A DNA stretch of 64,000 nucleotides from Shigella phage ESh29. The stretch lies in the sequence record ON528739. One strand, 5' to 3'. Below, piece by piece: positions 920 to 61,524 of this stretch. Under the pieces are notes generated by a model. The model was not told the origin of the DNA, did no database searches, and worked only from the letters and a program-made list of their open reading frames with translations. Each line of letters opens with the position of its first letter. Within the stretch, counting starts at the first letter, position 1. A program made the translations under genes and the position numbers.

Positions 920-933
920 AATATTTCCTCAGT

Positions 934-941
934 ATAAATAT
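934..941 (+). promoter_or_regulatory. T4-type late promoter box TATAAATA upstream of uvsW
   Basis: Exact TATAAATA about 29 nt upstream of the uvsW ATG. Confidence 0.55.
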
Positions 942-969
942 AGATATATTTATTACATGGTATTTAGAC

Positions 970-8939: not shown

Positions 8940-8947
8940 GGAATAAT

Positions 8948-11357: not shown

Positions 11358-11387
11358 ACTATAACACAACACGAGGGACTTGTAAAC
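11358..11387 (-). promoter_or_regulatory. Early-promoter-like cassette (GTTTAC -35, 18-nt spacer, TATAGT -10), minus strand
   Basis: Minus-strand GTTTAC at 11382-11387 and TATAGT at 11358-11363; about 50 nt near-identical to the cassette at 27131-27184. Confidence 0.55.
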
Positions 11388-13444
11388 TACATTTTGAACT
11401 TTTTAGACATTCCGTTAATGTTAACCAAAGAAGCTAAGATTTGAGAAACTTCGTTTTCCTCTTCTTTTGATTCTTCTACGAGGAATTGATTAAACCCAGC
11501 CATTGGACGAACTTCACCAGTTTCCATCAAATGGTCGCCATCATATACCGATTCTTCTAATTGTTCAGAAGGAGGAACGATTGTGCCTTCAATTAGATAC
11601 TTGTTATAAGCAGTTTCTTTCATCATGTACGTGCTCACTTTATTAATCTTCAGCAAAATTCCACGCGGTAGAATAACTTCAGCTTCTGATGGAAATCCTG
11701 ATAAATGACCTGGAACGATAACTTTGATTCGCTCAGCTCCTTTAATTACCATACCCACGCTAGTTTCAGCATCTTCATTAGCATATGTAGAATGACTACC
11801 CATATGCATTAAATCTTCGGCATCAACAGAACCTTCTCCTTCACCAGAAAATACTGCGCCGGAATCATCTAGAGCCATATAGTTTTTACCATGCTCACCG
11901 AAGATATTTGGTTTAAGCGATGTGGATACGAAGTTCTTGAAATAGAACATTTTATTTTCAATGTTATGACGCAAAGTTTTAAAGGTAACTTCTTGTCCAC
12001 GGTAAAGTGTAGTTCCTGGAGGAAGAACTGAACCTTTAGCGAATGCAGAATCAAGCGTCTCAATATGTTTAATAGCTCGTTCCATATATTCTTCGCGGGT
12101 AGAATCTGGTTTACCCAAAAGGAACGAGTTCATTTCAACATATGAATCTGCACAATAATCTTCAATTACATCAGATTCAGCTTGAGTTAATCCTTTTGGA
12201 GTTACTTCGGTGCTCGCGTATTCATATGCCTGAGCGGCAGATTCATTAATCAATTTATAAATGCCATTCATGACAAATTGAATAATAGCTGTCTTTTCAT
12301 CTGGCGTAGCTTTAGAACCTTTAACTAAATCATTGATAATTTTCTTAATAACATCAAAGCTATTAGAAATATTAATGTCAGCAAGATCGCTTAAAATTTT
12401 ATCAGTTTTATAATCAAAGAATTCTTTATTCTTTAAATATTCTTGAGAACCTTGATATGTTGTATCGCTCTGCAACTTGATAGATGGATCACGTAAACGC
12501 GCATGGGCTAATGCAATATGATTTCGGAAGCTTTCTAGTTCATAATCGTTAGATTTAAAACGAGAAGCACTTCTCATACCACCGATAGCTCCTTTGCCGA
12601 AGTTTGAACCAATCTGAATAACGCCAGAGTTCATTGGTCCTTCTGCTTTATATACCGGAACTTTAGATTCAAGCTCTTGATATTTCTTAGCAGCGAAGCT
12701 ATCACCCTGAAGTGAAGCATCAACAGTAGAATATTGAGCTTGTGCTGCTAATCGACGACTAATTTTAGTTTTCTGAATAACAGCTTGATCCGTGCGCTTA
12801 TCATTTTCCAAAGCAATAGAAGCAGCAACTGCGACAGCTTTAGGAACAGCATTACCTGTTTTAACGTCTACATAAACATCACCAACCTTTGATTCAACTT
12901 TTGTGAATAACTCAGTTGAAATAGGAGGTACACCTGGAATGTCTTCTAAATTGGCATTTTTACGGTAAACCATAATATATGCGTACTTTTTATCATAATC
13001 CCAGATTTCCTTTAAAAGAACATATCGACCTGCTCCTTTAGTACGTACTAAACGGTCAGCAATAACTTGCATTTGACGAGCAGCGCCATTTGTTTTACTT
13101 TTTAGTACGCGGAATAGGCATGCATCAATTTTATACTGTTTCATTGTTTGAAGAGCAGTATCAAAAACCGCATTAATGACACCAATTGGATTTCCACCCA
13201 AGTTTTTAAGCTTGACTAACGATAATTTCTCGTTGACACCTATCATTACGATATGCATCATTTTGTCGCCTGGCTTAACGTTTTTATTTGTATCACCGCC
13301 AGAGGTGTATGTACAAAATCTAAATCCGGGGAGAACGCTTTCTTCACCGGCTTGAATAGCAAAAATTTGAGGTATTTTATGCTTAGGATTTAAGTTAACA
13401 ACCGGCGCCGAAGCGCCGTCAAATAATTCTGTAATAAGTTCCAT
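11387..13444 (-). CDS. Alt-family mono-ADP-ribosyltransferase paralog, 685 aa
   Basis: N-terminal ~230 aa near-identical to the adjacent Alt; R-S-E motifs present (LYRGQ, FVSTSL, EAEVILPRG, YDGDHLMETGEV). Confidence 0.75.
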   Translation of the reverse strand: MELITELFDGASAPVVNLNPKHKIPQIFAIQAGEESVLPGFRFCTYTSGGDTNKNVKPGDKMMHIVMIGVNEKLSLVKLKNLGGNPIGVINAVFDTALQTMKQYKIDACLFRVLKSKTNGAARQMQVIADRLVRTKGAGRYVLLKEIWDYDKKYAYIMVYRKNANLEDIPGVPPISTELFTKVESKVGDVYVDVKTGNAVPKAVAVAASIALENDKRTDQAVIQKTKISRRLAAQAQYSTVDASLQGDSFAAKKYQELESKVPVYKAEGPMNSGVIQIGSNFGKGAIGGMRSASRFKSNDYELESFRNHIALAHARLRDPSIKLQSDTTYQGSQEYLKNKEFFDYKTDKILSDLADINISNSFDVIKKIINDLVKGSKATPDEKTAIIQFVMNGIYKLINESAAQAYEYASTEVTPKGLTQAESDVIEDYCADSYVEMNSFLLGKPDSTREEYMERAIKHIETLDSAFAKGSVLPPGTTLYRGQEVTFKTLRHNIENKMFYFKNFVSTSLKPNIFGEHGKNYMALDDSGAVFSGEGEGSVDAEDLMHMGSHSTYANEDAETSVGMVIKGAERIKVIVPGHLSGFPSEAEVILPRGILLKINKVSTYMMKETAYNKYLIEGTIVPPSEQLEESVYDGDHLMETGEVRPMAGFNQFLVEESKEEENEVSQILASLVNINGMSKKFKM

Positions 13445-13447
13445 GAT

Positions 13448-15544
13448 TTATCCTTGAACGAACTTGTAAGGCATGTTTGTAATATCTATGCAAGACGCAA
13501 TAATTCCAAGAGATGATTCTACTTTCTGTTTAACGTTTGATGAAACAAATGATGCAAAGTCAACTCTGTCTTCTATTTCAATATCACCTGTCATTGCAAC
13601 TACTTCACCGGTTTCCATTAAATGGTCTCCGTCATAGATTATCGATTCGGTGAGCTCTTCCGTGGTCATAACTTCAGCTTGAATGAGTTTTGTATTATTA
13701 GATGTTGTTCCGTCATTATTAGAAGCATCAGTTATTTTATTAATTTTGACCATCAATCCACGCGGTAGAATAACTTCAGCTTCTGTTGCTATTCCGAGAC
13801 TTCCTGGATATACAACATTAACTTTATGAGCTCCATCAATTGCCCATCCTATTTGAACTTTAACGTATTCAGGATTTTCTTTATACGCTCTTATTTCGTT
13901 TGGATTAATAGTTATTCCTTCTTCATTTTTATCAACTGTTAATTCATTGCGAGCTTCTGGTTCTAAAAGACCAATACCAGCATGTGTGATTCCAAAACGT
14001 CCAAAAATGATAGGAGTTAAAGAAGTAGATACAAAATTTCTGAAGTAGAACACTTTATTTTTAACTAACGCTTCATATATAGGAGCAGTCATACTTTGAG
14101 CACGATAAACTGTAATGCCTTCTGGTATACGGTCACCATTTTCAAAAGCTGAATCTAAGTTATTTATAGCAGATTCAATTTCTTTTTCACTCATTACATC
14201 ATATCGTTCTGGATTGTAACGACCTAAAAGAAGATTATTGATGTCAGTATATCCTGAACCGCAATATTCTCTAATGCCACGCTTTTGTGATGGAGTATAT
14301 TTAGAACCATCGCGGGCAATAGTAATATCAATCATTGGACCAGCACCAATTCCAGAAAAACTGTAAATCATTCGTTTGAGGAATTTAGTTTTTGCTGCGT
14401 TCCAGGAATTTTTAGTTATTTCTTCCCAGACTTCATCTGGTTGTCCTTTACGATTTTTATTATGATTAGCAAGCCATTTATCTTTATAATCTTCAAAGAA
14501 TTGATTTACAGCTGCTGCGTATTTCTCTAAACATTTTATTGAAGTAGTTGGTTCATTTTTAATTGCATTAAAAATTACTTCTTTAATTTTTTCTGAAACT
14601 TCACCGACTTGACTCATTGGAAAGAATTTATAATCATAGTGAAGTTCATCTGCCGTTCCTTCAGCAATAATTTTTGCTGCCTTTGTTTTAGAAGCTAATG
14701 AATTAATTCCAAGCTTCATTTCTTCTGCTTCGGGAATTAAAGGTGCAGTAGCTGGTTTATTAAAATTAGCTGCTGTAGATTCATACTTCTGGAATAATTC
14801 ACTTTCAAATCTAGAAGATTCCAATGACTGACTTTGTGCAATTGCTCTGCGAGAAATTTTAACCTTAACGATTACAGCTTGGTCAGAACGTTTATCATTT
14901 TCTTGCGCAATAGATGCAGCAATTGCCTCATTTTTGGTTACTTGAGCTCCAGTATCTTTATTAATATAAACATCACCGACCTTCGATTCAACTTTAGTAA
15001 AGAGTTCAGTGCTAATTTCTGGAACTCCTGGAATGTCTTCTAGTGATACATTTTTACGATGTATAAGAATATATGCATACTTTTTATCATAATCCCAGAG
15101 TTCCTTAAGAAGGACGTATCTGCCACCTGAACGACTGCGGATGAGTCTATCAGCAATAAGTTGAATTTGTCGAGCTTGACCAGCGGTTTTAGACTTAAGA
15201 ATACGAAGCATGCAGGCATCAATTTTATATTGACGCATTGTTTGCATTGCAACAGTAAAAACTGAATTGATATAATTAATCGGGCTTGGACCAAGACCTT
15301 TTAATTTGGCAATTGAACCTTTAGCAGTTAATGTAAAAGGAACGATATGCATCATCTTATCGCCAAGTTTTAGATCTCGGTTTGTATCACCTCCAGATGT
15401 ATAGGTACATAAACGAAAGCCTGGTTGTTCAATTGCATTATCAACATGAACTGAAAAAATTTGTGGTATTTTCTTCTTTGGATTTAAGTTTGTAATCGGA
15501 AGAGTAGTATCTTCGTCAAATAATTCTATAATGAGTTCCATCAT
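13448..15544 (-). CDS. alt: Alt ADP-ribosyltransferase (capsid-packaged), 698 aa
   Basis: N-terminus MMELIIELFDEDTTLPITNL... recognised as T4 Alt; VYRAQ, FVSTSL, EAEVILPRG motifs; late promoter upstream; between 54 and 30. Confidence 0.85.
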   Translation of the reverse strand: MMELIIELFDEDTTLPITNLNPKKKIPQIFSVHVDNAIEQPGFRLCTYTSGGDTNRDLKLGDKMMHIVPFTLTAKGSIAKLKGLGPSPINYINSVFTVAMQTMRQYKIDACMLRILKSKTAGQARQIQLIADRLIRSRSGGRYVLLKELWDYDKKYAYILIHRKNVSLEDIPGVPEISTELFTKVESKVGDVYINKDTGAQVTKNEAIAASIAQENDKRSDQAVIVKVKISRRAIAQSQSLESSRFESELFQKYESTAANFNKPATAPLIPEAEEMKLGINSLASKTKAAKIIAEGTADELHYDYKFFPMSQVGEVSEKIKEVIFNAIKNEPTTSIKCLEKYAAAVNQFFEDYKDKWLANHNKNRKGQPDEVWEEITKNSWNAAKTKFLKRMIYSFSGIGAGPMIDITIARDGSKYTPSQKRGIREYCGSGYTDINNLLLGRYNPERYDVMSEKEIESAINNLDSAFENGDRIPEGITVYRAQSMTAPIYEALVKNKVFYFRNFVSTSLTPIIFGRFGITHAGIGLLEPEARNELTVDKNEEGITINPNEIRAYKENPEYVKVQIGWAIDGAHKVNVVYPGSLGIATEAEVILPRGLMVKINKITDASNNDGTTSNNTKLIQAEVMTTEELTESIIYDGDHLMETGEVVAMTGDIEIEDRVDFASFVSSNVKQKVESSLGIIASCIDITNMPYKFVQG

Positions 15545-23067: not shown

Positions 23068-23300
23068 AGTACGCCATACACCCTTTGTGCTTCAACTAAT
23101 CCATCAAAATCCAGTTTAAGATGCGATATTTGATCGCCATCACCTGGATTCACAATTACTAATACTGAACGAGGAGTTTCGGTAATAACACGAACCGATG
23201 TTTCAGGAAATCGTTCAGAAACCTTATTTACCAATTCCTGAGCAAATAGTTTAACTTTTTCTTGGAATTCTTTAACAGTAATTGGTTTTTCGCTTAGCAT
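23064..23300 (-). CDS. Hypothetical protein, 78 aa
   Basis: ORF in the array between cd and pseT. Confidence 0.45.
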   Translation of the reverse strand: MLSEKPITVKEFQEKVKLFAQELVNKVSERFPETSVRVITETPRSVLVIVNPGDGDQISHLKLDFDGLVEAQRVYGVL

Positions 23301-23821
23301 GTTGATCCCAGCTCCATACTTTCAACGTTTTTAACTAATTTGACAGAAACTAATTCGGCATCTTGAGTAATCATTACCGGACCTTCTTCATACTCTTCAA
23401 GATATTCTAGAGCTTTCTTTTTAGCTTCTTCCTTCGTATCAGTTTGAGCATAGATATAAAACATACAACCAGTAATACCTACTACTTTCCACTTAATTTC
23501 TTTATCAGTTTTAATTTCAAATTTACTGACAGAATCATCTTTTTGAACTTCTTCGAAAAAAGAATATTCTAACATATAAGCAATTGAAAATAACGGGCTA
23601 ACTTTATAGGATTCGCCCATTACATCAACAGCTTTATACCAACAGTCATCAATTTCGCGTTTAATGCTAATAACATTTTTCGCAGGATCTATTTTTACTT
23701 TAAATGAATTTTCCCCAATAAACTGGGCAATTCGTTTATTAGCCCCGCAAGTTTCATTAAAAATATCTTTATATCCAGCTTTAAAGCGATAAACTTTATC
23801 TTCTTCAAACCATTCGCTCAT
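23294..23821 (-). CDS. Hypothetical protein, 175 aa
   Basis: ORF; early-promoter-like GTTTAC-N18-TATTAT at 23851-23880 upstream. Confidence 0.45.
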   Translation of the reverse strand: MSEWFEEDKVYRFKAGYKDIFNETCGANKRIAQFIGENSFKVKIDPAKNVISIKREIDDCWYKAVDVMGESYKVSPLFSIAYMLEYSFFEEVQKDDSVSKFEIKTDKEIKWKVVGITGCMFYIYAQTDTKEEAKKKALEYLEEYEEGPVMITQDAELVSVKLVKNVESMELGSTC

Positions 23822-24361: not shown

Positions 24362-25755
<1,394 letters not shown>

Positions 25756-27187: not shown

Positions 27188-28775
<1,588 letters not shown>

Positions 28776-28802
28776 AATAAAATGGGCCTTGCGGCCCACT
28801 CC

Positions 28803-29981
28803 TTAAAAATATTTTTTAAAACTCATCATAACTTTATCATCAACATCATTATCAATCTGTGCTACAAGATAAGATGATAGTTCTACTTCTTGTGGCGCGG
28901 ATTGAACATTATCAGAATTAAGATATTCACGAATCCAAGGATACGGATGTTTAACCGGAGCATCGGTAATTGGGCATGGAAGACCACACTGTTTCATACG
29001 AGATACGGTTAAGTAATCAATAAAGCTCCACATGCTATTTGTATTTAATCCAGGAACATCACCATCTTTAAATAAATGAACTGCCCAGTCTTTTTCTTGA
29101 CGGTTAACTTCCATGAAAATATCAACTGCTTCTTGTTCACACTCTTGAGCAATTTTAACCCATTCATCGCCATCAGTACCAGATTGAAGTTGACGAATAA
29201 TATATTGTGTACCTTTAAGATGAAGCTGCTCATCACGTGCAATGAACTTCATAATCTTGGCATTACCTTCCATGATTTCCATGTTTTTATGGAAGTTAAA
29301 GGTACACGCAAAGGATACATAAAAACGAATAGCTTCTAATGCATTAATAACGTGCAAACAGAGGTAAAGAGATTTCATTAGCTCACGCTTCCAATATGTC
29401 TCATGCTCAATAGCATCTTCAATAACGTCTTCGTCTGCATTAATTTCTTTTTGGTATTCGATATCAGCTTTAGCGTTTTCCCAATAACGAGTTTTAATCA
29501 GAACATCATCATAATAACGTCCAATGGATTCAGCACGTTTCATAATAGCTTCATCTAATACAATTTCATCAAATACCTTCGATGGATCAGTATAAAGATT
29601 TCGCATGATATGAGTATATGAACGACTGTGAATAGTTTCACTAAAAGTCCATGTAGCAACCCATGTATCAAGGCTTGGGTCTGAAATTAATGACATAAGT
29701 ACAGCAGATGGCGCGCGACCCTGAATGCTATCTAAAAGTGATTGATACTTCAAGTTGTTAGTAAAAATATTTTGCTGATACTGAGGAAGCTTATTAAACT
29801 GCGCAGCATCCATCATTAAGTTTACTTCTTCAGGCCGCCAGAAAAATGACAATTGCTTTTCGGTCAAATCTTCAAAAACTTTATGGCGTTGAATATCATA
29901 ACGCGCAATACCAAGACCTGAACCAAAAAACATAGGTTCTTTTAAAACATCAACTGGATTTGTATTAAAAACTGTAGACAT
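28803..29981 (-). CDS. nrdB: Ribonucleotide reductase small subunit, 392 aa, uninterrupted
   Basis: Class I RNR beta-subunit iron-ligand region; continuous ORF, no intron; start at MSTVFNT gives a TAATG overlap with mobE. Confidence 0.9.
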   Translation of the reverse strand: MSTVFNTNPVDVLKEPMFFGSGLGIARYDIQRHKVFEDLTEKQLSFFWRPEEVNLMMDAAQFNKLPQYQQNIFTNNLKYQSLLDSIQGRAPSAVLMSLISDPSLDTWVATWTFSETIHSRSYTHIMRNLYTDPSKVFDEIVLDEAIMKRAESIGRYYDDVLIKTRYWENAKADIEYQKEINADEDVIEDAIEHETYWKRELMKSLYLCLHVINALEAIRFYVSFACTFNFHKNMEIMEGNAKIMKFIARDEQLHLKGTQYIIRQLQSGTDGDEWVKIAQECEQEAVDIFMEVNRQEKDWAVHLFKDGDVPGLNTNSMWSFIDYLTVSRMKQCGLPCPITDAPVKHPYPWIREYLNSDNVQSAPQEVELSSYLVAQIDNDVDDKVMMSFKKYF

Positions 29982-30712
29982 TAATTTTTCCTCTTTAAAA
30001 TTCTGCCGCGTTTCCAACCTGGCGGTATAATATCATCTTTACCTATAAGCGTGCATTCACTTCCATTATTAATCCATTTCTTACCGCGGATTCCTTTATA
30101 ATCTCTTGGTTGTATTTTGTCAAACTTTGCATCAAGTTGATATGCCCATCGAAATCCATAGGCATATTGAAATTTACCCTCAGCACAATATTTGATATTT
30201 GACCCGTTTCCATTAACTGACCTGGACGCTGCGGCAATAGAGTGAAAGGTTTCTATGAAATCCCCATCTAATGAGAATTTATGTATTTCGATAGATGGGC
30301 ATGCATACCTATTCACGTTTGATACATGTTGTTTAGTTTCGTTTTTATGATGCTTGCCTAACATTCCTCTAGGATGAGGATTATTTTTCCAATATTTCTT
30401 AAAGAAATCAGAATTAGCTTTAGCAAATAATTTTCTGTGCAAGCTATACAATCTGTTATTAATTCTATTACCAGCTTTATCTGTTGCCATTAACGTTAAC
30501 GCAGAGGCAAGACCAAAATGGCCTTCATTTATCTTGCATAGTAATAGATGCGCTATAAAATGTTCTCTAGCTGTTAATTCAACTAAATTTTCTTTATCAT
30601 CAGAACCTCCCATGCATTTAGGGACTATATGATGTGTCTCTTTATACTCGGATAAATGTTCCCGAGCCTGAGCTCGGGAAATTAGGTCATTATAGATTTT
30701 TTGATAATTCAT
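29981..30712 (-). mobile_element. mobE: Free-standing HNH homing endonuclease between nrdA and nrdB, 243 aa
   Basis: HNH motif HHIVPKCMGGSDDKENLVELTAREHFIAH; lies exactly between nrdA and nrdB with 1-nt overlaps at both ends, as T4 mobE. Confidence 0.8.
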
Positions 30713-32976
30713 TACAATTTACACGCTGCACAATCGTCGGCTTTAGGAGTTTCTATTTCATAATCATCAGTACCAGAACCATCACGGGTATTATGATAAT
30801 AGAAATTTTTAATGCCATAATACCATCCGTATAACATGTCATCAATCATTATTGACATTGGAACCTTTCCTTTTGGAAAAATCTGCGGGTCATAGTATGT
30901 ATTCGCTGAAGCTGATTGACATACCCATTTCAGCATAATAGCTACCTGCGTAAGATAAGGTTTATTACCTTTCTTAGCTAATTTCCACGTATAATCATAT
31001 AGGTCTATGTTATGCTCAATATTGGGCACGACTTGATTAAAGGAGCCCTCTTTTGATTCTTTAACAGAGACTGGTCCACGTGGAGGCTCGATACCGTTTG
31101 TACTGTTAGAAACTTGGGAAGATGACTCACATGGCATAAGTGCTGATAATGTGCTATTACGGATGCCAAAGAGCTTAAGGTCTTCCCGCAGCGCCGACCA
31201 GTCACAAACGTATTTTGGAGATGCGATTTGGTCAATCTTTTTATTGTACCAGTCGATAGGTAATTCGCCTCGAGACCAACGAGTGTCTGAATAATATTCG
31301 CAAGGTCCTTTTTCTTTTGCGAGCTTAATGGATGCTTTAATGAGTCCATACTGTAATCTCTCAAATAGTTCATGTGTTAAATCATTAGCATCTTCATAAG
31401 AAGCAAAGTTACTTGCCAGCCAAGCTGCATAGTTGGTAACACCTACACCGAGGTTACGACGCTTTTTAGCTTTTTCTGCTTCAGGAACTGGATATCCTTG
31501 GTAATCCAACAGATTATCAAGAGCACGAACTTGAACTTCTGCCAATTCATTAATTTTATCTTGGTCTTGCCAGTCAAAATTATCTAGTACGAATGCAGAG
31601 AGAGTACACAATCCAATTTCAGCATCAGGACTATTCACATCATTTGTTGGAATAGCAATTTCACAGCACAAGTTACTCTGGCGAATAGGTGCCTTTTCAC
31701 GAATAAACGGAGTATAGTTATTCGTATTATCAATGAACTGCACATAAATCCTTGCTGTTCCTGAGCGTTCAGTCATGAGTAATTCAAACAGTTCACGGGC
31801 TTTAATACGCTTTTTACGAATATTAGGGTCTTTTTCTGCGGCTTCGTATAATTCACGGAAACGGTCTTGGTCTTTAAAATAAGAATAATAAAGCTCGCCA
31901 CCCATTTCATGCGGACTGAACAAAGTAATGTAATCGTTCTTTCCAAAACGTTCCATCATCAAATCATTCAGCTGAACACCATAATCCATATGACGAATGC
32001 GGTTTTCTTCTACGCCTTTGTTATTTTTCAAAACGAGAAGATTTTCAACTTCCAAATGCCAAATAGGATAATAAGAAGTAGCAGCGCCGCCACGAATTCC
32101 ACCCTGTGAACATGATTTAACTGCAGTCTGAAAATGTTTCCAAAAAGGAATAACACCAGTATGACGCACTTCACCCATTCCAATCTTAGAACCTTCGGCA
32201 CGAATCATACCAACGTTAATACCAATTCCAGCGCGTTTGGAGATATATTCAACAATTGAAGCAGAAGCCTTATTGATAGACTTTAATGAATCACCTGCTT
32301 CAATAACAACGCATGAACTAAACTGCCGAGTCGGAGTACGGCAACCAGCCATAATAGGAGTTGGCAGTGAAATCTGTCGAGTAGATACTGCTTCATAAAA
32401 ACGAATAACATGTTTTAATCTATCAACAGGTTCATCTTGATGCAATGCCATTCCAATAGTCATAAATGCAAACTGCGGAGTTTCATAAATTTGACCAGTG
32501 GTTTTATCTTTAACTAGATATTTTTCTTTTAATTGCATCGCCCCGGAATAAGTAAATTCCATATCCCGTTCGTGCTTAATTTTTGATTCTAAAAATGTAA
32601 TTTCTTCAGCAGAATATTTTGACAACAGTTCAGGGTCATATTTACCTTCATTTACACAGTAAGAAATATGGTCAATAAATGAACGTGGTTCATACTGCCC
32701 GTAAACATGTTTACGAAGAGCGAACATTAAACAGCGTGCAGCTACATATTGGTAATCAGGCTCTTCAACTGAAATAGAATTCGCAGCAGCCTTAATTACA
32801 ATAGTTTGAATGTCATCAGTTGTCATTCCATCACGGAGATATGATTTAATATTTTCATATAATTCATAAGGATCTACAGATGTTCCTTCAGCTGCCCAAG
32901 ATAAAACTTTAATAATTTTTTGCGGGTCAAAGCTCTGAGAAACACCACTACTTTTGATAACATTAATTAATTGCAT
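30712..32976 (-). CDS. nrdA: Ribonucleotide reductase large subunit, 754 aa
   Basis: Class I RNR alpha features (ATP-cone N-terminus, C-terminal CAACKL tail); T4 NrdA length. Confidence 0.95.
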   Translation of the reverse strand: MQLINVIKSSGVSQSFDPQKIIKVLSWAAEGTSVDPYELYENIKSYLRDGMTTDDIQTIVIKAAANSISVEEPDYQYVAARCLMFALRKHVYGQYEPRSFIDHISYCVNEGKYDPELLSKYSAEEITFLESKIKHERDMEFTYSGAMQLKEKYLVKDKTTGQIYETPQFAFMTIGMALHQDEPVDRLKHVIRFYEAVSTRQISLPTPIMAGCRTPTRQFSSCVVIEAGDSLKSINKASASIVEYISKRAGIGINVGMIRAEGSKIGMGEVRHTGVIPFWKHFQTAVKSCSQGGIRGGAATSYYPIWHLEVENLLVLKNNKGVEENRIRHMDYGVQLNDLMMERFGKNDYITLFSPHEMGGELYYSYFKDQDRFRELYEAAEKDPNIRKKRIKARELFELLMTERSGTARIYVQFIDNTNNYTPFIREKAPIRQSNLCCEIAIPTNDVNSPDAEIGLCTLSAFVLDNFDWQDQDKINELAEVQVRALDNLLDYQGYPVPEAEKAKKRRNLGVGVTNYAAWLASNFASYEDANDLTHELFERLQYGLIKASIKLAKEKGPCEYYSDTRWSRGELPIDWYNKKIDQIASPKYVCDWSALREDLKLFGIRNSTLSALMPCESSSQVSNSTNGIEPPRGPVSVKESKEGSFNQVVPNIEHNIDLYDYTWKLAKKGNKPYLTQVAIMLKWVCQSASANTYYDPQIFPKGKVPMSIMIDDMLYGWYYGIKNFYYHNTRDGSGTDDYEIETPKADDCAACKL

Positions 32977-33293
32977 AAGTCCTCAACTTGAAAATCGTCT
33001 TTAAACAATCGGTTAACTATATGAGCTATTATATCACCATGACACGGCTTTGGTTTACATGTGCATCCTAGCCTCATTCCACACAAAGGCTCTAAATGTG
33101 CTTTAGTTATTTCTCCGGATTTAATTCGACGTATAAAATCTTTTTTGAATAATTCAATGGCAGCCTCCCGGCTGCCAGCATCTTTACCGACGTAATTTCC
33201 CCAAAATGTACCACGGTGAATATTAACATCAAAGTCGGATTTATATTTATTCACTACCTGACATAGACGGCCGGCGCGGCGATAATTCGTCAT
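32967..33293 (-). CDS. Cys-rich hypothetical protein, 108 aa (nrdA.1 position)
   Basis: ORF between td and nrdA; cysteine cluster [17 protein letters not shown]. Confidence 0.5.
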
Positions 33294-33522
33294 ATTGTTT
33301 TTCCGTTAAAACAGTAATATCATAGTAACAATCTGAAGAAGTTTTAACTGTAGAAATTTTATTATCAAAATACTCACGAGTCATTTTATGAGTATAATAT
33401 TTTTTGCCATAAATGATAATAGGCTGATTTGGTCCTGGAACTTCTAACTCGCTTGGATTAGGAAGTGTAAAAAGAACTACACCAGAAGTATCTTTAAATC
33501 GTAAAATCATATATCCTCGCAA
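33247..33522 (-). CDS. Hypothetical protein, 91 aa (nrdA.2 position)
   Basis: ORF between td and nrdA. Confidence 0.45.
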
Positions 33523-33533
33523 TTAAATTAAAA

Positions 33534-34393
33534 TTATACCGCCATTTTTCCTTTCAAGACACCGTGGGACTGATAATCTTTGAGAACGAAATCTTTAGGC
33601 CTGAGTTTAAGAACATATTCCAATTGTTCTTTAGTAGAAAGATAGCGGAATTTATAAGGCAATCCGCCTATTACCAGTTCACAAAGCTCTTTAGGTTCAC
33701 GACGTAAAATTTCTTTACATTGTTCTACGTGATTCATATAGATATGAGTATTACCGCCAGAAAATATCAAATCTCCAGGAATAAGATTACACATCTTAGC
33801 TACAATATGAACTAACGCAGCATATGATGCAATATTAAATGGAAGACCAAGAAAAACATCTACTGATCGTTGATACCACTGCAAATCCAAATAGCCATTA
33901 CGCACATTAAACTGATAGAACATATGACAAGGCGGTAATGCCATATATTTAAGTTCAGCTGGATTCCACGCAGAAACAATTTGTCGCCTATCATTCGGCA
34001 GTTTTTTAATACGATCAATAACTTCTACAATTTGGTCTACACCGCCAAAATCACGCCATTGTTTTCCATAAATTGGACCAAGTTCACCGCTATGGTATCC
34101 TAAATCTTTTGCTTGATTTTCGTAATTTTCATCCCAGACTGTTTTGCCTTGAATTAATGAATCATGCTGAATTAATCGTAAATCATTGACATTTGTGCTT
34201 CCCGATAAAAACCATATTAGCTCAGCAATGCAAGCTTTCCAGGCAAGCTTCTTAGTCGTTACTGCAGGAAAACCTTTAGTTAAATCCCAGCGTAATTTAG
34301 TACCGAACAAAGCAATTGTTCCTGTGCCTGTTCGGTCATCGGTTTCATAACCGTTTTCCAGGATATCTTTAATTAAAAATTGGTATTGTTTCA

Positions 34394-34394
<1 letters not shown>
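33534..34394 (-). CDS. td: Thymidylate synthase, 286 aa, uninterrupted
   Basis: Sequence recognised as T4 Td including the active-site region (LPPCH); start set at MKQYQ; continuous ORF. Confidence 0.95.
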
Positions 34395-35422
<1,028 letters not shown>

Positions 35423-35426
<4 letters not shown>

Positions 35427-35782
35427 ATTATCTCCAATTGAAAAGGGTCATGAGCATATCCGCTAGCGTCAATCATTTTAACTAAAGTTACCATTCCTCT
35501 GTTAACTGCTTGCGCGATTTCATCAAAAACTTCGTCACTATCATCGTAAAGGTCATTAAAAAGTTCTAATACGTTCTTCTGAACTTTTAATTTACGGCCG
35601 ACAATTTCGCCTACAGTAAATTCGTTTCCGCCAAATCCACCGAAAAACTTAATTACACCAGTTAACTGGCTTTCACGGGAATCTATGTCGTATGATAAAT
35701 TAATAAAAGCCGTCCCAGGCGCGGTTTTAAGTTGGCAACGAATTTTTACTTGGGTAATTCCAGTTATATGAATGTTAGACAT
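35423..35782 (-). CDS. Hypothetical protein, 119 aa
   Basis: ORF upstream of frd. Confidence 0.45.
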
Positions 35783-36971: not shown

Positions 36972-37880
36972 TTAAAGGTCATTCAAAAGGTCATCCAGGT
37001 CTGTGTCATCAGCACTAGATGAACTGCCAGAGCTTGAGCTCATAAAATCATCTTCAGTTTTTGTATTGAAGTCATCAACATTGAATGCATCCAAATCATC
37101 AGCAACTTTATCAGCTTTCTTAGCGGCAGTCGCTGCGGCACCACCCATAGCAGCAGTTCCCATAACTTGACTGAACTTAGTGCTCAGTTCTTCAAACGAT
37201 TTGAATTTGTCTTTAGAAGTCATTTCAGAAAGGTCAACCATTTGTTCGAACAGTTCTTTCTGGAAAGATTCATCGTCAATGTTTGGAATCGCAGATTGAT
37301 TCAGGAATTTAGATTCGTCGTAGTTACTAAAACCAGAAACTTGTTTAACTTTCAGTACAAAGTTAGCACCTTCCCACGGACAAGTTACATCAACCGGAGT
37401 TTCACCCATTTCAACATCAACTGCAATCATTGCGTTGATTTTATCCCAGATTTTCTTACCGAAACGGTATTTAAATACTTTACCTTCGTTTTCTGGAGCA
37501 GCTGGGTCTTTTACAACAAGAATGTTAGCCCAGTAAGAAGTTTTACGTTTAACAAGACCGTACTCTTTATTGTCAGTGTTGTACAGATCATTTTTACTGA
37601 TATACTGACATACTGGACAAGAATCGTAATCACCGTGGGTAGATGAACAGTTTTCAATATACCATTTACCATTTTTCTTGAAACCGTGATTTACAAGAAT
37701 TGCGAATGGTGCTTGTTCATCATTTTTAGACGGAAGAAAACGAATTACTGCTTGACCGTTACCCGCATTGTCGAGTTTCAGTTTCCACTCGCCTTTATCT
37801 TCAGAAGAAAAACCACCTTTATTTCCAGCCAGTTTAGCCATTTGTGCAGCGAGTTCAGCAGTAGATTTACGTTTAAACAT
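36972..37880 (-). CDS. 32: Single-stranded DNA-binding protein gp32, 302 aa
   Basis: Sequence recognised as T4 gp32, including the acidic Ser/Asp-rich C-terminus. Confidence 0.95.
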
Positions 37881-37979
37881 TTTTATTTCCTTTTTAATTT
37901 AATTAACAGTTGGTGCTATGACGATGTATGACCTCATAGCTGGTCAGTGAGATAATTATAATCTATTTATAATAAGCAA

Positions 37980-45301: not shown

Positions 45302-45952
45302 ATGGCTGATTTAAAAGTAGGTTCAACTGTAGGTGGATCTGTCATTTGGCATCAAGGAAATTTTCCATTGAATTCAGCCGGTGACGATGTACTCTACAAA
45401 TCATTTAAAATATATTCAGAATATAATAAACCACAGGCAGCTGATAACGATTTCGTTTCTAAAGCTAATGGTGGTACTTACACCGGTCCAATTACTATTA
45501 ATTACGGGGTAAATAGTTATCTTCAATTAAGTAATAATGAAACCCCCATTCGAATTCGTTCTGGTGGCGGTACCGGTAATACTCTTGTAGTTGGCGGCTC
45601 TTCCGGCGGTATTAGTTTTAGACCTGCAGGTAGTGAAATCACTACTGGACAAATTACTATTACGCCAGAAGGTTTGACAACATTTACCAGGGCTGTAACG
45701 GCTCCATCGGTAACTGTTACATCTACTCCTTCCGCAGCATCTGATGTTACTCGCAAAGATTATGTTGATGGAGCAATAAATACTGTTACAGCAAATGCAA
45801 ACTCTAGGGTATTACGCTCTGGAGACACTATGACAGGAAATTTAACTGCGCCAAACCTTTTTTCACAGAATCCTGCATCTCAACCTTCACACGTTCCACG
45901 ATTTGACCAAATCGTAATTAAGGATTCTGTTCAAGATTTCGGCTATTATTAA
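45302..45952 (+). CDS. 36: Long tail fibre distal connector gp36, 216 aa
   Basis: Size and synteny. Confidence 0.85.
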
Positions 45953-45960
45953 GAGGACTT

Positions 45961-48927
45961 ATGGCTACTTTAAAACAAATACAATTTAAAAGAAGCAAAA
46001 CTGCAGGTCAACGTCCTGCTGCTTCAGTATTAGCCGAAGGTGAATTGGCTATAAACTTAAAAGATAAAACAATTTTCACAAAAGATGACTCAGGTAGTGT
46101 TATAGAATTAGGTTTAAAATATGGAGGAACAATTGATGGTTCTTTAACTGTTAATGGAAGCATAATTGGAAATTTAACAGGTAACGCTGCAACCGCAACG
46201 AAATTGCAAACACCTAGGAAAATTAATGGTATATCTTTTGATGGGTCAAAGGACATTACCCTAACTCCATCTGACATAAATGTCAATAGCACAACATTTA
46301 TAAAAAATAATGGCGAATTACCTACTAATGCTAATTTAGATGAGTATGGGCCCATTGAAGAATATCTTGGTGTTTGGTCGAAATCTACTTCAACAAATGC
46401 GCAACCAGCAAATAAATTTCCAGAAGAAAATGCCGTAGGTGTACTAGAAGTATTTGTTGCCGGCCAATTTGCTGGCACTCAGCGTTATACTGTAAGATCT
46501 GGTAACGTCTATATTCGTTCCTTATCTGCTAAATGGAATGGCGTCGATGGTCCATGGGGTCCGTGGCGCAATATTCAAACTGGCACACGTCCACTATCAA
46601 CTACGCTAGACTTGAATACTTTGGGTGATGCTTCTCATTTTGGGTTATGGCGAAATAGTTCAAGTGCCATTGCAACATTTTCTCGAAATTACCCAGAAGA
46701 AGGTGGTCTCGCGCAAGGTCTTTTAGAAATTTATGAAGGCGGTAACTATTCTCGTACACAACGTTATACTACCCGAATGGGTGTTGTATATGTTCGTTGT
46801 CTTGCTGGCGCATGGGATCCAGAAGCTCCGAATTGGGGAGAGTGGCAACAAGTAGGTATGGTTACTCCCAGCACATTCTATGACGGAGATCTGAATGATT
46901 TTAAAACTCCTGGGTTATATAATATTTTAGGCACTGATGCCGTTATTAACTGTCCTACCGGTGAAGGTTTGCCGACTGTTATTGTTGGTTTGCTGGAAGT
47001 TAAACAGCGTGCTTCTGGCGGTGCTATTTTCCAAAAATTTACTACTGCCGGAACGGGTGCAACTACTCGCGATCGTATTTTTGAGCGTGCATATACTGGT
47101 GGTGTGTGGGGTGCATGGAACGAAGTATATACATCTTATTCTTTGCCAATTACTTTGGGTATGGGTGGTATTAAAACTCAATTAGCGGAGCTAGATTGGC
47201 AAACATTTGATTTTGTTCCTGGTAGTATGTTTAGCGTTCCTTTGAACAAAATAAAGAACATGCCAGCAAATATGAATTGGGGTACGATTGACGGAAACTT
47301 GGTTATGTTTTCTGTCGGTCCTAGCGAACACACCAGCACAGGACGTACTGTTCAGGTTTGGCGTGGTACTGTATCCCAGACAAACTACCGTTATTTTGTC
47401 GTTCGTGTGTTCGGTAATTCTGGAAATAGAACTTGCACAGTTCGCCGTGTTGTTCTTGAAGACGGATCACATACTTGGACTGCTCAACAAGATTTTAATG
47501 GTGCTGTTAGCTTTGGTAGTTCAACAACGTTTAAATCAACTACAACATTTAATACAGAAGTTAAATTTCGCTCATTGAATGCATTCCGTATGTATGGCGG
47601 AAAATTTGGTACATTTTTACGTAATGATGGAGAGAGTCTTTATATTCTTTCCACCGACGAAGATGATCAAGATGGAAACTTTAATACAAATAGACCTTTC
47701 CGTTATGAATTAAGAACTGGTGATGTTACTTTGGGTGGTGTTAGTGGTGCTAACGTTTTAAAACTAAAACGTGATTCTCTCACCGCATTTTTTGGCGGTG
47801 ATATTAATATGAAAGGCTTGCTGACTTTTGACGCCGGACGTTTAGGATCACGAGATTATTTTAAATTTAACCATTGGGGTGATAGTAATAATGCTCGTGA
47901 TAACATCATCCAGTTAGAAGATAGCAAAGGCGTTCATTTTTCCACTGAACGTACTTTAGCGACTGGTGCAATTAAGACTAAATTTTTTGGTGAAGTTGAA
48001 TCCGATGGACGATTGATTATTAAACGTCCGGGTGATTCTATTGTATTATCAGCACCTGCTAGTAATTCTTTGCATATTCGTGGTGACGTAGACGGGACTG
48101 GTAACTGGTATATTGGTAAGGGTGGTGATGATAATGGATTAGCGTTCTATAGTTATGCTACTAATGCTGGTGTATACATTACAAACGCAGGAGATATCTC
48201 GCTAAGTCCAAAGGGTGCCGAAATGGCTCAGGTCAATAACGTTCGATTATATGTTCATGGTGAACGTTGGACCGCTAGTCAACCAGGTGATTGGGGTAGT
48301 CAGTGGCAAGTGGAAGCGCCAATATTCGTCGATCATGGTTATGTTTCACAGGATTGTTATTATCCAATTATTAAAGGAAGAAGTGTAATCACCAATCAAG
48401 GGTTTGTAACTGCCGTCGATCTTGGTATTCGTCGTGTCCCTGACAATTGGGGGCAAGCAATTATTCGTGTTGGATCTGCAGAGGCTTCACCAGCGGCTGG
48501 ACACCCTAACGCGGTATTTGAATTTCATTACGACGGTACTTTCTATTCTCCTGGTAATGGTAATTTTAACGATGTGTATATTCGTTCCGATGGTCGACTT
48601 AAGATCAATAAAGAAGAGTTAGAAAACGGAGCACTTGAAAAAGTATGCCGACTGAAAGTTTATACATACGATAAGGTTAAGTCTATTAAAGATCGTAGTG
48701 TTATTAAACGTGAAGTTGGTATTATTGCTCAGGATCTTGAAAAAGAATTATCAGAAGCTGTATCTAAAGTTGAAGTTGATGGATCTGATGTTCTGACAAT
48801 TTCTAACTCCGCTGTGAATGCTCTTTTAATTAAGGCCATTCAGGAAATGAGCGAAGAAATTAAAGAATTGAAAACGCCTTTCTTCACTAAAATTGCTCGC
48901 AAAATTGGTAAATACTTTAAATTCTAA
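45961..48927 (+). CDS. 37: Long tail fibre distal subunit gp37, 988 aa
   Basis: Size and synteny; followed by a glycine-rich gp38. Confidence 0.9.
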
Positions 48928-48959
48928 CAACAAGGGGCATTGCCCCTTTGGAGAAAATT

Positions 48960-49760
48960 ATGGCAGTAGTTGGTGTTCCTGGTTGGATTGGAAGTTCATC
49001 CGTAAATGAAACAGGACAACGATGGATGAGTCAAGCGGCTGGTCAATTAAGATTGGGTGTTCCTTGCTGGATGAGCCAATTCGCCGGACGCTCAAGAGAG
49101 ATTATTCATACCGTAACAGCAAACCATAACTTTAATGGTCAATGGTTCCGCGACCGTTGCTTTGAAGCTGGCGGTGCACCCATTGTATTCAATATTGTTG
49201 GTGATATCGTTTCTTATTCTAAAGATGTGCCACTTTTCTTTATGTATGGGGATACGCCTAATGAATATGTTGTTCTTAATATTCATGGTGGTGTTCATAT
49301 GTGGGGTCGTGGTGGTAATGGTGGATACACTCACTCAGGAGGCGACGGTAACGGTACACAAGGCGGTCATGTTATTCAAAATGATATCGGTGGACGGCTT
49401 CGTATTTGGAACTATGGTGTTATAGCTGCTGGCGGCGGCGGCGGCGGTGGTATTGCATATCGTCCACACTCAGGGGCAAACTGGCAAGATATCGGTGGCG
49501 GTGGTGGTCGACCTTTCGGTGGTGCTGGCGGTGGCGGTTATTCCGGTGGTGCTGCTTCGTATGAAGGTCCGGGTGGTGGTTATGACTATGGTAACGCACA
49601 CTCCGGCGCTGGTGGTAATGCTGGTGCTGCTGGTCAGAATGCATGGTCTGACGGCGGTAAAGTTCTTAAAGTTGGTGTTGGTGGTGCGTCTGGTCATGCA
49701 GTGTTTGGGTCTTCTCCAACTTGGGGTGCTGTTGGAACAATTTACGGACCAAGAGTATAA
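48960..49760 (+). CDS. 38: Tail fibre tip adhesin gp38 with glycine-rich motifs, 266 aa
   Basis: ATG at 48960 after GGAG (track ORF 48948 begins at TTG); several poly-Gly blocks separated by variable segments. Confidence 0.8.
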
Positions 49761-49791
49761 TTTTGAATAAATATCCTTAAAAGGAGGGTCT

Positions 49792-61494: not shown

Positions 61495-61524
61495 ATTATA
61501 CCACATCCTTGTGGTAAAGTAAAC
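61495..61524 (-). promoter_or_regulatory. Early promoter (GTTTAC, 18-nt spacer, TGGTATAAT) with ACCACA...TGTGGT dyad
   Basis: Minus-strand GTTTAC at 61519-61524 and perfect TATAAT at 61495-61500 with an extended -10 TG; overlaps the gene 39 stop. Confidence 0.6.

Follow-up and report, generated by a model that had tools for sequence, protein, structure and literature searches.

That introns and endonuclease genes are patchily distributed among T-even phages is textbook material, and the first survey of mobE in the RB phages was reportedly that of Sandegren et al. 2005. The HNH nicking homing endonucleases include I-HmuI, which is encoded by an intron of Bacillus phage SPO1. Mechanistic data have been published for mobE of phage T4, a gene located between nrdA and nrdB, the AUG of which overlaps the nrdA stop codon (PMC2988022). 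In mixed infections with T2, T4 MobE causes an endonuclease-dependent nick near the nrdA/nrdB junction and super-Mendelian inheritance; the nick site, shown against T2 together with mapping of the polymorphic region, is nrdB nt 122-126 (PMC2790892).

The window analyzed here, a 64,000-nt stretch of Shigella phage ESh29 (sequence record ON528739), carries an intact HNH open reading frame at the same junction. This ORF is, in our opinion, very probably an RB3-type mobE, i.e., a free-standing HNH homing endonuclease gene. The genes of the locus are as follows.

28803..29981, minus strand: nrdB, RNR small subunit, 392 aa from the ATG of MSTVFN, without an intron (Pfam)
29981..30712, minus strand: HNH ORF, probable RB3-type mobE, 243 aa, intact (ORF calls)
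30712..32976, minus strand: nrdA, RNR large subunit, 754 aa (Pfam ATP-cone and RNR large-subunit domains)

Direct reading of the sequence gives ...AAATTGTAATGAATTAT for the nrdA/HNH junction and ...AAAAATTAATGTCTACA for the HNH/nrdB junction, each with a TAATG overlap of 1 nt; the mobE start, in the same orientation as its two neighbors, overlaps the nrdA stop (UAAUGA). The ORF calls and the junction reading thus agree with the sequence-only reading, which had described a 243-aa HNH protein between nrdA and nrdB with 1-nt overlaps on both sides. The same reading had regarded these overlaps as the signature of a homing endonuclease, a view that does not hold, since such overlaps are common among neighboring genes in the window: TAATG or ATGA overlaps also connect, among others, td with a 68-aa ORF, this ORF with frd, frd with the ORF that follows, and gene 25 with gene 26. 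The 1-nt overlap is ordinary T4-type gene packing with translational coupling. No recognizable promoter is present immediately upstream of mobE.

The window gene shares 98.8% nucleotide identity with RB3/RB9 mobE over 732 nt, differing from the RB3 gene at 9 positions (2 non-synonymous), and shows 100% identity with mobE of phages U115 and SYGD1. The mobE genes of RB3, RB5, RB6, RB7, RB9, and RB10 match that of the window in locus, length (243 aa), overlaps, and domains. RB3 mobE is entered as RB3_226 in KM606994, with the note "nrdB.2". Unlike the window, RB3 has an nrdB intron with an active I-TevIII and a td intron with I-TevI. The layout of the window is found unchanged in P922 (OR999189), which has an intron-less nrdB, an RB3-type mobE, nrdA, and an intron-less td, as well as the 68-aa ORF between td and frd. 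RB3-type mobE also adjoins an intron-less nrdB in U115, EC101, and vB_HpaM_IsaacDaniel; together with P922, these phages share 94-97% identity with the window in the surrounding region, and none of the records in the phage collection matches the window exactly. Neither the gene nor its position or layout is therefore new, the arrangement of P922 in GenBank being the same. The combination of an endonuclease with absent introns, which had been put forward as noteworthy, is not unusual, because P922 has exactly this layout and mobE carriers show every combination of td and nrdB introns.

The nrdA-nrdB junction is occupied by mobE in a minority of T4-like (Tequatrovirus) phages. The RB3 type is present in about 12% of Tequatrovirus records (59 of about 486), and about 79% of a spread sample of such records have just a 54-nt spacer at this junction. 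More widely, among the 62 MobE-like IMG/VR loci that gave a protein match, 22 have in addition a gene for a distant NrdA (30-66% identity), and in 21 of these 22 that gene stops immediately ahead of the HNH gene. A near-identical tract of 1.6 kb shared by the window and SYGD1 is centered on mobE, against a background that is 2-10% diverged; this tract possibly reflects a recent transfer. Mosaic identity tracts are commonly produced in T4-like phages by ordinary recombination, and the tract is no proof of homing.

The 732-nt ORF is intact in all seven carriers compared, with no stop codon and no frameshift. Across the seven, 42 sites are variable, mostly synonymously, and dN/dS ranges from 0.07 to 0.14 (about 0.1), so that, as judged from these codon comparisons, mobE is under purifying selection. 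The dS and dN values for the nrdB 5' region of P922 and RB3 were discarded, because the comparison was ungapped and an indel inflates them.

The encoded protein combines an N-terminal HNH motif with modules typical of homing endonucleases.

30547..30712, minus strand: 5' module common to T4 and T6 mobE, nt 1-166, codons 1-55 (DNA alignment with T4)
30317..30370, minus strand: NUMOD3-like motif GMLGKHHKNETKQHVS, aa 115-132, a G-K-x-H-S/K-x-E-x-K block in the alignment, assigned by eye
30182..30274, minus strand: NUMOD1 DNA-binding module, aa 147-177 (Pfam PF07453; pLDDT about 95)
29999..30085, minus strand: C-terminal motif GKKWINNG...IPxGWxxGR, aa 210-238, conserved in full-length homologues P0001-P0019

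The Pfam HNH model gives 20.4 bits, just under its curated cut-off of 21.4, whereas NUMOD1 scores above its cut-off of 22.8, with 25.9 bits when the whole protein is searched and 27.5 bits (E 3.6e-6) when the C-terminal fragment is searched by itself. The catalytic His/Asn/His residues of the HNH motif are all present. Residues E25, H27, H28, N42, E50, H51, and H55 are invariant across 35 aligned homologues, and the motif itself (HH27-28, N42, H51, H55) is encoded by the shared 5' module. Pfam NUMOD3 gave no score for the protein; in the AlphaFold2 model, a helix (residues 124-137) is located at the NUMOD3-like motif. The C-terminal part also has a weak Pfam I-HmuI_NUMOD-like match, and the C-terminal motif, presumably an additional DNA contact, forms two beta strands (211-215 and 220-224) in the model. 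PHROG assigns the protein to phrog_655, "homing endonuclease" (2.4e-57). The HNH and NUMOD1 modules, this PHROG match, and the identity to RB3 mobE all bear out the earlier assignment of the ORF to the mobile kind.

The AlphaFold2 model (pLDDT 89) consists of distinct, confident domains, and its best PDB match by Foldseek is I-HmuI (1u3e; E 4e-3, probability 0.96). In I-HmuI (PDB 1U3E), as in the mobE protein, NUMOD-type DNA-binding modules follow an N-terminal HNH nuclease; it is, however, encoded inside an intron while mobE of the window is free-standing, the two sequences are 12% identical, and the TM-score over the whole length is low. The superposition is weak (TM about 0.2-0.3 overall, 0.21-0.28), as may be expected for an elongated multi-domain protein modeled without DNA, in which the relative orientation of domains is not expected to agree. 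A sequence search of the PDB returned a single marginal match, the HNH domain of a group II intron maturase; structure prediction was needed to reach I-HmuI.

The first 166 nt of T4 mobE are about 96% identical to the window, up to ...CATTTTATAGCGCAT, after which the similarity breaks down. Correspondingly, BLASTP of T4 MobE (NP_049844) against the window protein gives near-identity over residues 1-60 alone and 62% over 110 aligned residues. After His55 the two proteins are unrelated over the C-terminal three quarters, the part presumed to bind DNA in the window protein. No full-length homology to T4 MobE and no similarity to T4 NrdB.1 was found for the window protein. In T6, and in T4 when mobE and nrdB.1 are read together, the protein ends in NUMOD3 and a zinc-ribbon-like CxxC motif, whereas that of the window ends in NUMOD1 and the WINNG/GWxxGR motif. 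The T4 reference has the gene split into mobE (141 aa) and nrdB.1 (83 aa) through a frame change relative to the 213-aa T6 form. Three different C-terminal modules are thus found at the mobE locus, and the name "mobE" applies to no fewer than three alleles, in which a common nuclease module is joined to differing DNA-binding modules. By its sequence, the window gene is not the T4 allele but an RB3-type gene that has the same locus and nuclease module. The alignment with T4 mobE proposed in the sequence-only reading is consequently borne out for codons 1-55 and for the insertion point, while the remainder is unrelated and belongs to a different allele. In addition to the insertion point, T4 and the window have in common the UAAUGA overlap with nrdA and the nrdA 3' end.

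The flanking genes bear on the question of where the RB3-type enzyme may act. The region equivalent to the T4 MobE nick site, together with the regulatory elements considered further below, is located as follows.

29851..29868, minus strand: region corresponding to that of the T4 MobE nick site, nrdB nt 114-131, with codon 42 = AAG and the nick site itself at 29856-29860 (alignment)
30659..30680, minus strand: hairpin UUCCCGAGC-UCAG-GCUCGGGAA, 9-bp stem and 4-nt loop (T4 alignment and folds)
30019..30051, minus strand: candidate MotA-type middle promoter for nrdB, cGCTTAt-N12-TATTAT, assigned by eye in the mobE 3' end
29990..29993, minus strand: nrdB Shine-Dalgarno GAGG, within the last mobE codons (sequence AAGAGGAAAAATTAATG)

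Around the nick site (nt 100-135), nrdB of T4 and T6 differs by many substitutions, whereas the window has retained the T2-like sequence, the form nicked by T4 MobE; the other RB3-type carriers likewise keep it at the mapped T4 MobE nick site. The RB3 type thus occurs without the substitutions in nrdB that go with the T4 and T6 types, and no "immunity" substitutions were found in nrdB of the carriers. This would mean that the enzyme has its target at another place, or else that it cuts or tolerates the genome by which it is encoded. When 7 carriers were compared with 6 non-carriers, the sole fixed differences were located in the last 28 nt of nrdA, where 7 substitutions are fixed in the carriers, and in nrdB codon 2. 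The NrdA C-terminal tail accordingly reads KADDCAACKL in carriers and KAEDCSSCKL in phages without mobE.

Since the DNA-binding parts of the RB3-type protein and T4 MobE are unrelated, the RB3-type allele may have a target other than nrdB nt 122-126, and published conclusions on the MobE target site may not apply to it. Our tentative proposal, which could well prove wrong, is that the RB3, T4, and T6 alleles have a common nrdA 3' end and nuclease-encoding 166 nt with swapped DNA-binding modules, and that the RB3-type target differs from nrdB nt 122-126, probably lying no more than some tens of bases from the nrdA stop or the intergenic spacer. The different target is suggested by the T2-like nick-site sequence of the carriers and by the confinement of fixed differences to the end of nrdA and nrdB codon 2. 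If the proposal is true, mobE alleles could invade one another, T4-type mobE should nick and convert the window phage, and recombination inside the shared 5' segment would give exactly the chimeras observed.

On the model of T4 MobE (PMC2790892), mobE of the window would be co-transcribed and translationally coupled with nrdA, with the hairpin terminator keeping its level low. In a mixed infection with a mobE-less phage, the enzyme would nick or cut the rival genome near the nrdA/nrdB junction, and recombination-dependent repair would then copy mobE and flanking markers into that genome. The nuclease activity and homing role of the RB3-type allele are in this scheme assumed by analogy with the T4 allele, the DNA-binding region of which differs.

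The hairpin lies about 30 nt into the coding region and appears in the centroid as well as the MFE fold; its sequence is the same in T4 mobE, where it corresponds to a weak intrinsic terminator mapped inside the gene (PMC2790892). It is therefore a putative intrinsic terminator in the window, its function having been demonstrated for T4 only. Scans for sigma-70 promoters and terminators gave counts no higher than in shuffled sequence, and the terminator scan missed the known hairpin, because its U-tract is short. The nrdB middle promoter of T4 lies in the place equivalent to the candidate at 30019-30051 (PMC2790892), which may serve the same role in the window; its motif is invariant in the 7 carriers. 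Among these, mobE nt 611-732 contain 2 variable sites, whereas most other bins contain 4-7 per 61 nt. A strict regular-expression search for MotA boxes found none in the 3' part of the window mobE, and the same search in T4 and T6 gave a single match, at -190 from the nrdB ATG. The T4 motif AATGCTTTA, about 45 nt upstream of nrdB, was picked out by eye as a possible promoter element. The nrdB Shine-Dalgarno is annotated as a ribosome-binding site in U115.

These elements raise the alternative that mobE is a domesticated cassette, kept mainly as a regulatory part of the nrd genes, such that its deletion would be harmful and its protein may no longer drive spread; domestication into nrd regulation has been argued likewise for T4 mobE (PMC2790892). 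The conserved 5' hairpin, the placement of the nrdB Shine-Dalgarno inside the last mobE codons, and the near invariance of the last 120 nt, with their promoter-like motif, are all consistent with this alternative. However, regulatory DNA alone would not hold dN/dS at about 0.1 over all 243 codons, nor would it leave the HNH residues invariant. Moreover, most relatives do without mobE, and three C-terminal modules at one locus signify turnover rather than fixation. For these reasons, we consider domestication unlikely.

Much less probable still is an inactive remnant, i.e., an HNH ORF that looks intact only in the assembly. The split of the T4 reference into mobE and nrdB.1 does indicate that decay or sequence errors occur at this locus, but the same 732-nt ORF recurs in seven independent genomes and every catalytic residue is present. 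The question of a truncated pseudogene, raised in the sequence-only reading, is settled by this integrity and by the dN/dS of about 0.1, and the pseudogene was rejected. We give barely any credence to a non-mobile HNH protein, for example a packaging-associated or defense-related nuclease that adjoins the nrd genes by chance. HNH domains do occur in many non-mobile proteins, and the weak PDB sequence match was to the HNH domain of a maturase; yet the gene is a variable occupant of a junction that is conserved in other respects, carries NUMOD modules, which are characteristic of homing endonucleases, is remote from the terminase genes, and has its 5' part in common with T4 mobE, the mobility of which has been demonstrated (PMC2790892). 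An intact RB3-type homing endonuclease gene thus remains the preferred reading.

The remaining T4 intron and endonuclease positions were compared using the following features.

239-919, minus strand: inh (ORF)
920..969: inh-uvsW spacer, 50 nt, the empty segE locus (ORFs and T4 annotation)
970-2481, plus strand: uvsW (ORF)
11387-15544: duplicated alt genes, inspected insert
23294-23821: 175-aa ORF, inspected insert
25453-25755: 100-aa ORF, inspected insert
33534..34394, minus strand: td, thymidylate synthase, 286 aa, without an intron (full-length Pfam Thymidylat_synt, E 8e-94)
33816..33890, minus strand: td homing-site region, -45 to +30 around the insertion site, identical to phage T2
34394-34600: 68-aa ORF between td and frd, inspected insert
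35181-35782: 81- and 119-aa ORFs, inspected inserts
37881..37979: spacer between genes 32 and 59, the empty segG locus (ORFs and T4 annotation)

Rfam, applied at gathering thresholds to both strands of the 64 kb, detected no group I intron and no other structured RNA. Alignment with T4 and RB3 places the empty intron site of td between nt 549 and 550 (window 33846 and 33845), and alignment with the T4 and RB3 exons places that of nrdB between nt 676 and 677 (window 29306 and 29305). The exons are contiguous at both sites and, together with the negative Rfam result, they uphold the claim that td and nrdB are uninterrupted by group I introns. The claim that segD is missing between inh and uvsW requires correction: the spacer is indeed empty, but the T4 gene missing from it is segE. 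By blastn, 636 nt of T4 are missing from the window at this place, and T4 segD is located between genes 23 and 24 (PMC2988022). T4 likewise has 624 extra nt between genes 32 and 59.

The search for hidden endonucleases covered all segments of at least 200 nt that do not align to T4, except the tail-fiber region (45480-49767) and three smaller extra stretches of 150-203 nt near 55.1, 56.8, and 57.7 kb. None of the segments inspected, including the inserts in the list above, has an HNH, GIY-YIG, or NUMOD match. The earlier view that the phage carries one mobile endonuclease and lacks the T4 introns is in keeping with these results: the other T4 sites are empty, and the inserts are not endonuclease-like. 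With mobE in place and all five other T4 endonuclease positions in the 64 kb empty (segE, I-TevIII, I-TevI, segG, and mobA), the window is a clean natural example of one occupied site among six. In crosses of T4 with T2, I-TevI is inherited at high frequency (PMC2790892); since it has the same td homing site as T2, the window phage would serve as a recipient in homing crosses.

The window comes from a T4-like phage (Tequatrovirus) and is colinear in blastn comparisons with T4 from ~111.1 kb to ~168.9 kb at an identity of typically 92–97%; its last 5 kb run beyond the end of the T4 record, into rIIA and gene 39. The phage collection holds no record identical to it, the best matches reaching ~96% over 24 kb. 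A sequence-only reading of this DNA had placed a 243-aa HNH ORF between nrdA and nrdB, overlapping both by one nucleotide, and ORF calls and a reading of the junctions (TAATG at both) agree with it exactly. The genes relevant here are as follows.

239-919, inh
970-2481, uvsW
28365-28799, minus strand, denA
28803-29981, minus strand, nrdB, 392 aa, continuous, full-length Pfam family match
29981-30712, minus strand, HNH ORF (RB3-type mobE), 243 aa
30712-32976, minus strand, nrdA
between nrdA and td in the gene list, minus strand, nrdA.1 and nrdA.2
33534-34394, minus strand, td, 286 aa, continuous, full-length Pfam family match
34597-35181, minus strand, frd
36972-37880, minus strand, gene 32

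The HNH ORF is a known gene, the mobE of phage RB3, in a known arrangement. Its DNA is 100% identical to the SYGD1 and U115 genes and 98.8% identical to mobE of RB3 and RB9. PHROGs matches it to ‘homing endonuclease’ (2e-57), while Pfam places NUMOD1 at residues 147–177, above the cut-off, and HNH at residues 18–44 with 20.4 bits, below the cut-off of 21.4. Across 35 aligned homologues, E25, H27, H28, N42, E50, H51 and H55 never vary, and the full-length relatives also conserve the NUMOD1 region, a NUMOD3-like block (G-K-x-H-x-x-E-x-K) and, at the C-terminus, the motif GKxWIxNG...IPxGWxxGR. The AlphaFold2 model (mean pLDDT 89) consists of separate confident modules; its closest PDB match is the HNH nicking homing endonuclease I-HmuI (1u3e; E 4e-3, probability 0.96), with a low overall TM-score, as would be expected of a flexible multi-domain protein modelled without DNA. 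That the ORF might be a truncated pseudogene, a possibility raised in the sequence-only reading, can be rejected, because the same 732-nt ORF is kept intact in all seven RB3-type carriers compared (the window, RB3, U115, EC101, IsaacDaniel, SYGD1 and P922), with pairwise dN/dS of 0.07–0.14; it is thus a functional protein-coding gene. The one-nucleotide overlaps, taken as the signature of a homing endonuclease, lose that meaning, as TAATG and ATGA overlaps join many ordinary neighbours in the window. The earlier observation is thus correct and its interpretation largely right, and the layout itself is nothing new; only the structure of the mobE alleles, and the possibility that the RB3 type has another target, are worth following up.

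The proposed alignment with T4 mobE holds for only part of the gene. Identity to T4 is ~96% over the 3′ end of nrdA and the 166 nt with which the ORF begins, but similarity ends abruptly past the His55 codon, the remainder being unrelated until the start of nrdB; at the protein level, near-identity to T4 MobE is limited to residues 1–60. Protein comparison revealed no similarity to T4 NrdB.1, the domains of which are NUMOD3 and a zinc-ribbon-like CxxC motif. The ORF is therefore not an example of the T4 mobE allele. In T4 itself (NC_000866 139716–140416), mobE (141 aa) and nrdB.1 (83 aa) read as one gene broken by a frame change, the intact counterpart of which is the 213-aa ‘mobE’ of T6 (MH550421); the T6 type has both ends in common with T4 mobE and differs in the middle segment. 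Because the T4, T6 and RB3 types share the 5′ module yet diverge downstream, the locus, judged from its sequences, has at least three alleles, in which one nuclease-coding 5′ module is joined to differing DNA-binding parts. The 5′ segment common to the window and T4 contains the HNH motif and a hairpin, UUCCCGAGC-UCAG-GCUCGGGAA (window 30659–30680), which in T4 is a weak intrinsic terminator limiting mobE transcripts (PMC2790892).

By analogy with T4 MobE (PMC2790892, PMC2988022), the window gene would have no promoter of its own and would be transcribed from promoters upstream of nrdA, with its translation coupled to that of nrdA and its expression attenuated by the hairpin. In a mixed infection, the competing genome would be nicked close to the junction by the enzyme and, during repair, would acquire mobE together with flanking markers. 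The nrdB Shine-Dalgarno sequence (GAGG, 29990–29993) lies inside the last mobE codons, and the almost invariant last 120 nt of mobE include a promoter-like motif, cGCTTAt-N12-TATTAT (30019–30051), which could correspond to the middle promoter of nrdB that T4 mobE contains.

T4 MobE nicks T2 nrdB at nt 122–126 (PMC2790892), and the T4 gene differs from that of T2 at numerous sites within nt 100–135 (alignment; PMC2790892); T6 nrdB has a similar substitution block around the nick site. In all seven RB3-type carriers this region is T2-like (codon 42 = AAG). A comparison of the seven carriers with six non-carriers, covering the final 900 nt of nrdA and the initial 640 nt of nrdB, revealed no fixed difference at the nick site; the sole fixed positions are seven sites in the last 28 nt of nrdA (window 30715–30742) and the three bases of nrdB codon 2. 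The nrdA sites alter the NrdA tail, which is KAEDCSSCKL in non-carriers and KADDCAACKL in carriers; both tails keep the C-terminal CxxC pair and differ in the two residues inside it. KADDCAACKL occurs in all mobE carriers, whatever their allele (RB3, T4 or T6 type), and KAEDCSSCKL in six of six phages without mobE and in Escherichia phage 236Ecol005PP. The T2-like nick site, the confinement of fixed differences to the junction and the different DNA-binding module suggest either that the RB3-type enzyme may cut very close to its insertion point, not at the T4 site, or that it may tolerate cutting its own genome, as SegH and Hef reportedly do. A further prediction is that a T4-type MobE could nick the window phage.

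RB14 (FJ839692), which lacks mobE, has part of a T6-like substitution block at nrdB nt 96–131, a stretch surrounding the site nicked by T4 MobE; these substitutions may date from an earlier recombination with a carrier phage, or may reflect selection for resistance. The window and SYGD1 differ by 3 mismatches over a 1.6-kb tract (window 30001–31600) comprising mobE and ~900 nt of the nrdA 3′ region, with flanks 2–10% diverged. The tract, which reaches much further into nrdA than into nrdB, fits recent transfer, although ordinary recombination would give the same pattern.

Occurrence was estimated from a spread sample of Tequatrovirus records, in about four-fifths of which nothing but a 54-nt spacer separates nrdA from nrdB; the others have an insert of the RB3 type (733 nt), T4 type (692–699 nt) or T6 type (635–640 nt), or something else. 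The RB3-type gene is found at full length in 59 records. Full-length relatives (47–77% identity) occur in Yersinia, Citrobacter, Salmonella, Morganella and Vibrio phages, that of Morganella phage MP1 likewise lying between nrdA and nrdB. An NrdA of 30–66% identity is also encoded by 22 of the 62 MobE-like IMG/VR loci with a protein match, and in 21 of these 22 the HNH gene begins directly after nrdA, in line with the known preference of mobile elements for ribonucleotide reductase genes as targets (PMC3045599). In three distant phages with this arrangement (contigs L019, L025 and L043), the NrdA match is in two pieces, broken near residues 438–446 with 740–1750 nt between, which suggests that nrdA itself has received another insertion, whether an intron, an intein or an endonuclease gene. 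In 236Ecol005PP (PP434423 134990–139857), nrdA is interrupted by an endonuclease gene (236 aa, HNH/I-HmuI-NUMOD), resembling Aeromonas phage Aeh1, and the nrdA-nrdB spacer holds a 263-aa D12-class adenine methyltransferase gene instead of mobE.

The absence of introns from td and nrdB was also read correctly: in both genes the exons are contiguous, and Rfam, run on both strands of all 64 kb, detected no group I intron or any other RNA family. When aligned with their T4 and RB3 counterparts, the two genes show the empty sites at td nt 549/550 (window 33846/33845) and nrdB nt 676/677 (window 29306/29305). Over the td homing-site region, from −45 to +30, the window and T2 have the same sequence, and I-TevI is inherited at high frequency in T4 × T2 crosses (PMC2790892); from this it is predicted that the window phage can receive the td intron. 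An endonuclease without introns, considered a mix useful for tracing mobility, is a real layout but one already on record in P922, which lacks both introns and, between td and frd, has the 68-aa ORF found in the window. Every intron combination is seen among RB3-type carriers. RB3 has both introns with their endonucleases, whereas the window has neither; in SYGD1 the td intron is ~320 nt long and ORF-less, td being annotated in two pieces ~315–320 nt apart (local 8869–9182 of the SYGD1 segment), a gap consistent in size with a td intron that lost the I-TevI ORF; and EC101 has extra DNA in the td region, of a size and annotation consistent with an endonuclease-carrying intron. The td region is also ~320 nt longer than that of the window in PYps55T, UPWr_E2 and 101112UKE3-1.

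A search of the rest of the window for seg and mob genes showed that, among the six T4 endonuclease positions in the interval (segE, mobE, I-TevIII, I-TevI, segG and mobA), the mobE site alone is occupied. The inh-uvsW gap, 50 nt long, is indeed without an endonuclease gene, but the missing T4 gene is segE and not segD, as had been stated; T4 segD lies between genes 23 and 24 (PMC2988022, Table 1; T4 annotation). Unlike T4, the window has a single topoisomerase II large-subunit ORF as gene 39 (606 aa, 61524–63344, minus strand), without the gene 39/60 split, mobA between them or the 50-nt translational bypass of gene 60. No nuclease or NUMOD match was found among the window-specific inserts relative to T4 of at least 200 nt outside the tail-fibre region (45480–49767), which encode small proteins of unknown function.

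The td-frd junction looks like a small polymorphic hot spot. In the window it holds the 68-aa ORF (34394–34600, minus strand; phrog_9550, function unknown, no Pfam match), which overlaps td (TAATG) and frd (ATGA); T4 lacks this ORF, its td overlapping frd directly; an unrelated 115-aa ORF (phrog_1928) takes the position in RB3 and SYGD1, and in T2 the junction holds 413 nt without annotation. A 175-aa ORF (23294–23821, minus strand; phrog_3710, function unknown) is inserted between homologues of cd.2 and cd.3, where T4 has nothing. In the window, alt (ADP-ribosyltransferase) is present as two full-length paralogues in tandem, 685 and 698 aa long (11387–13444 and 13448–15544, minus strand), whereas T4 has one alt and the short remnants alt.-1 and alt.-2.
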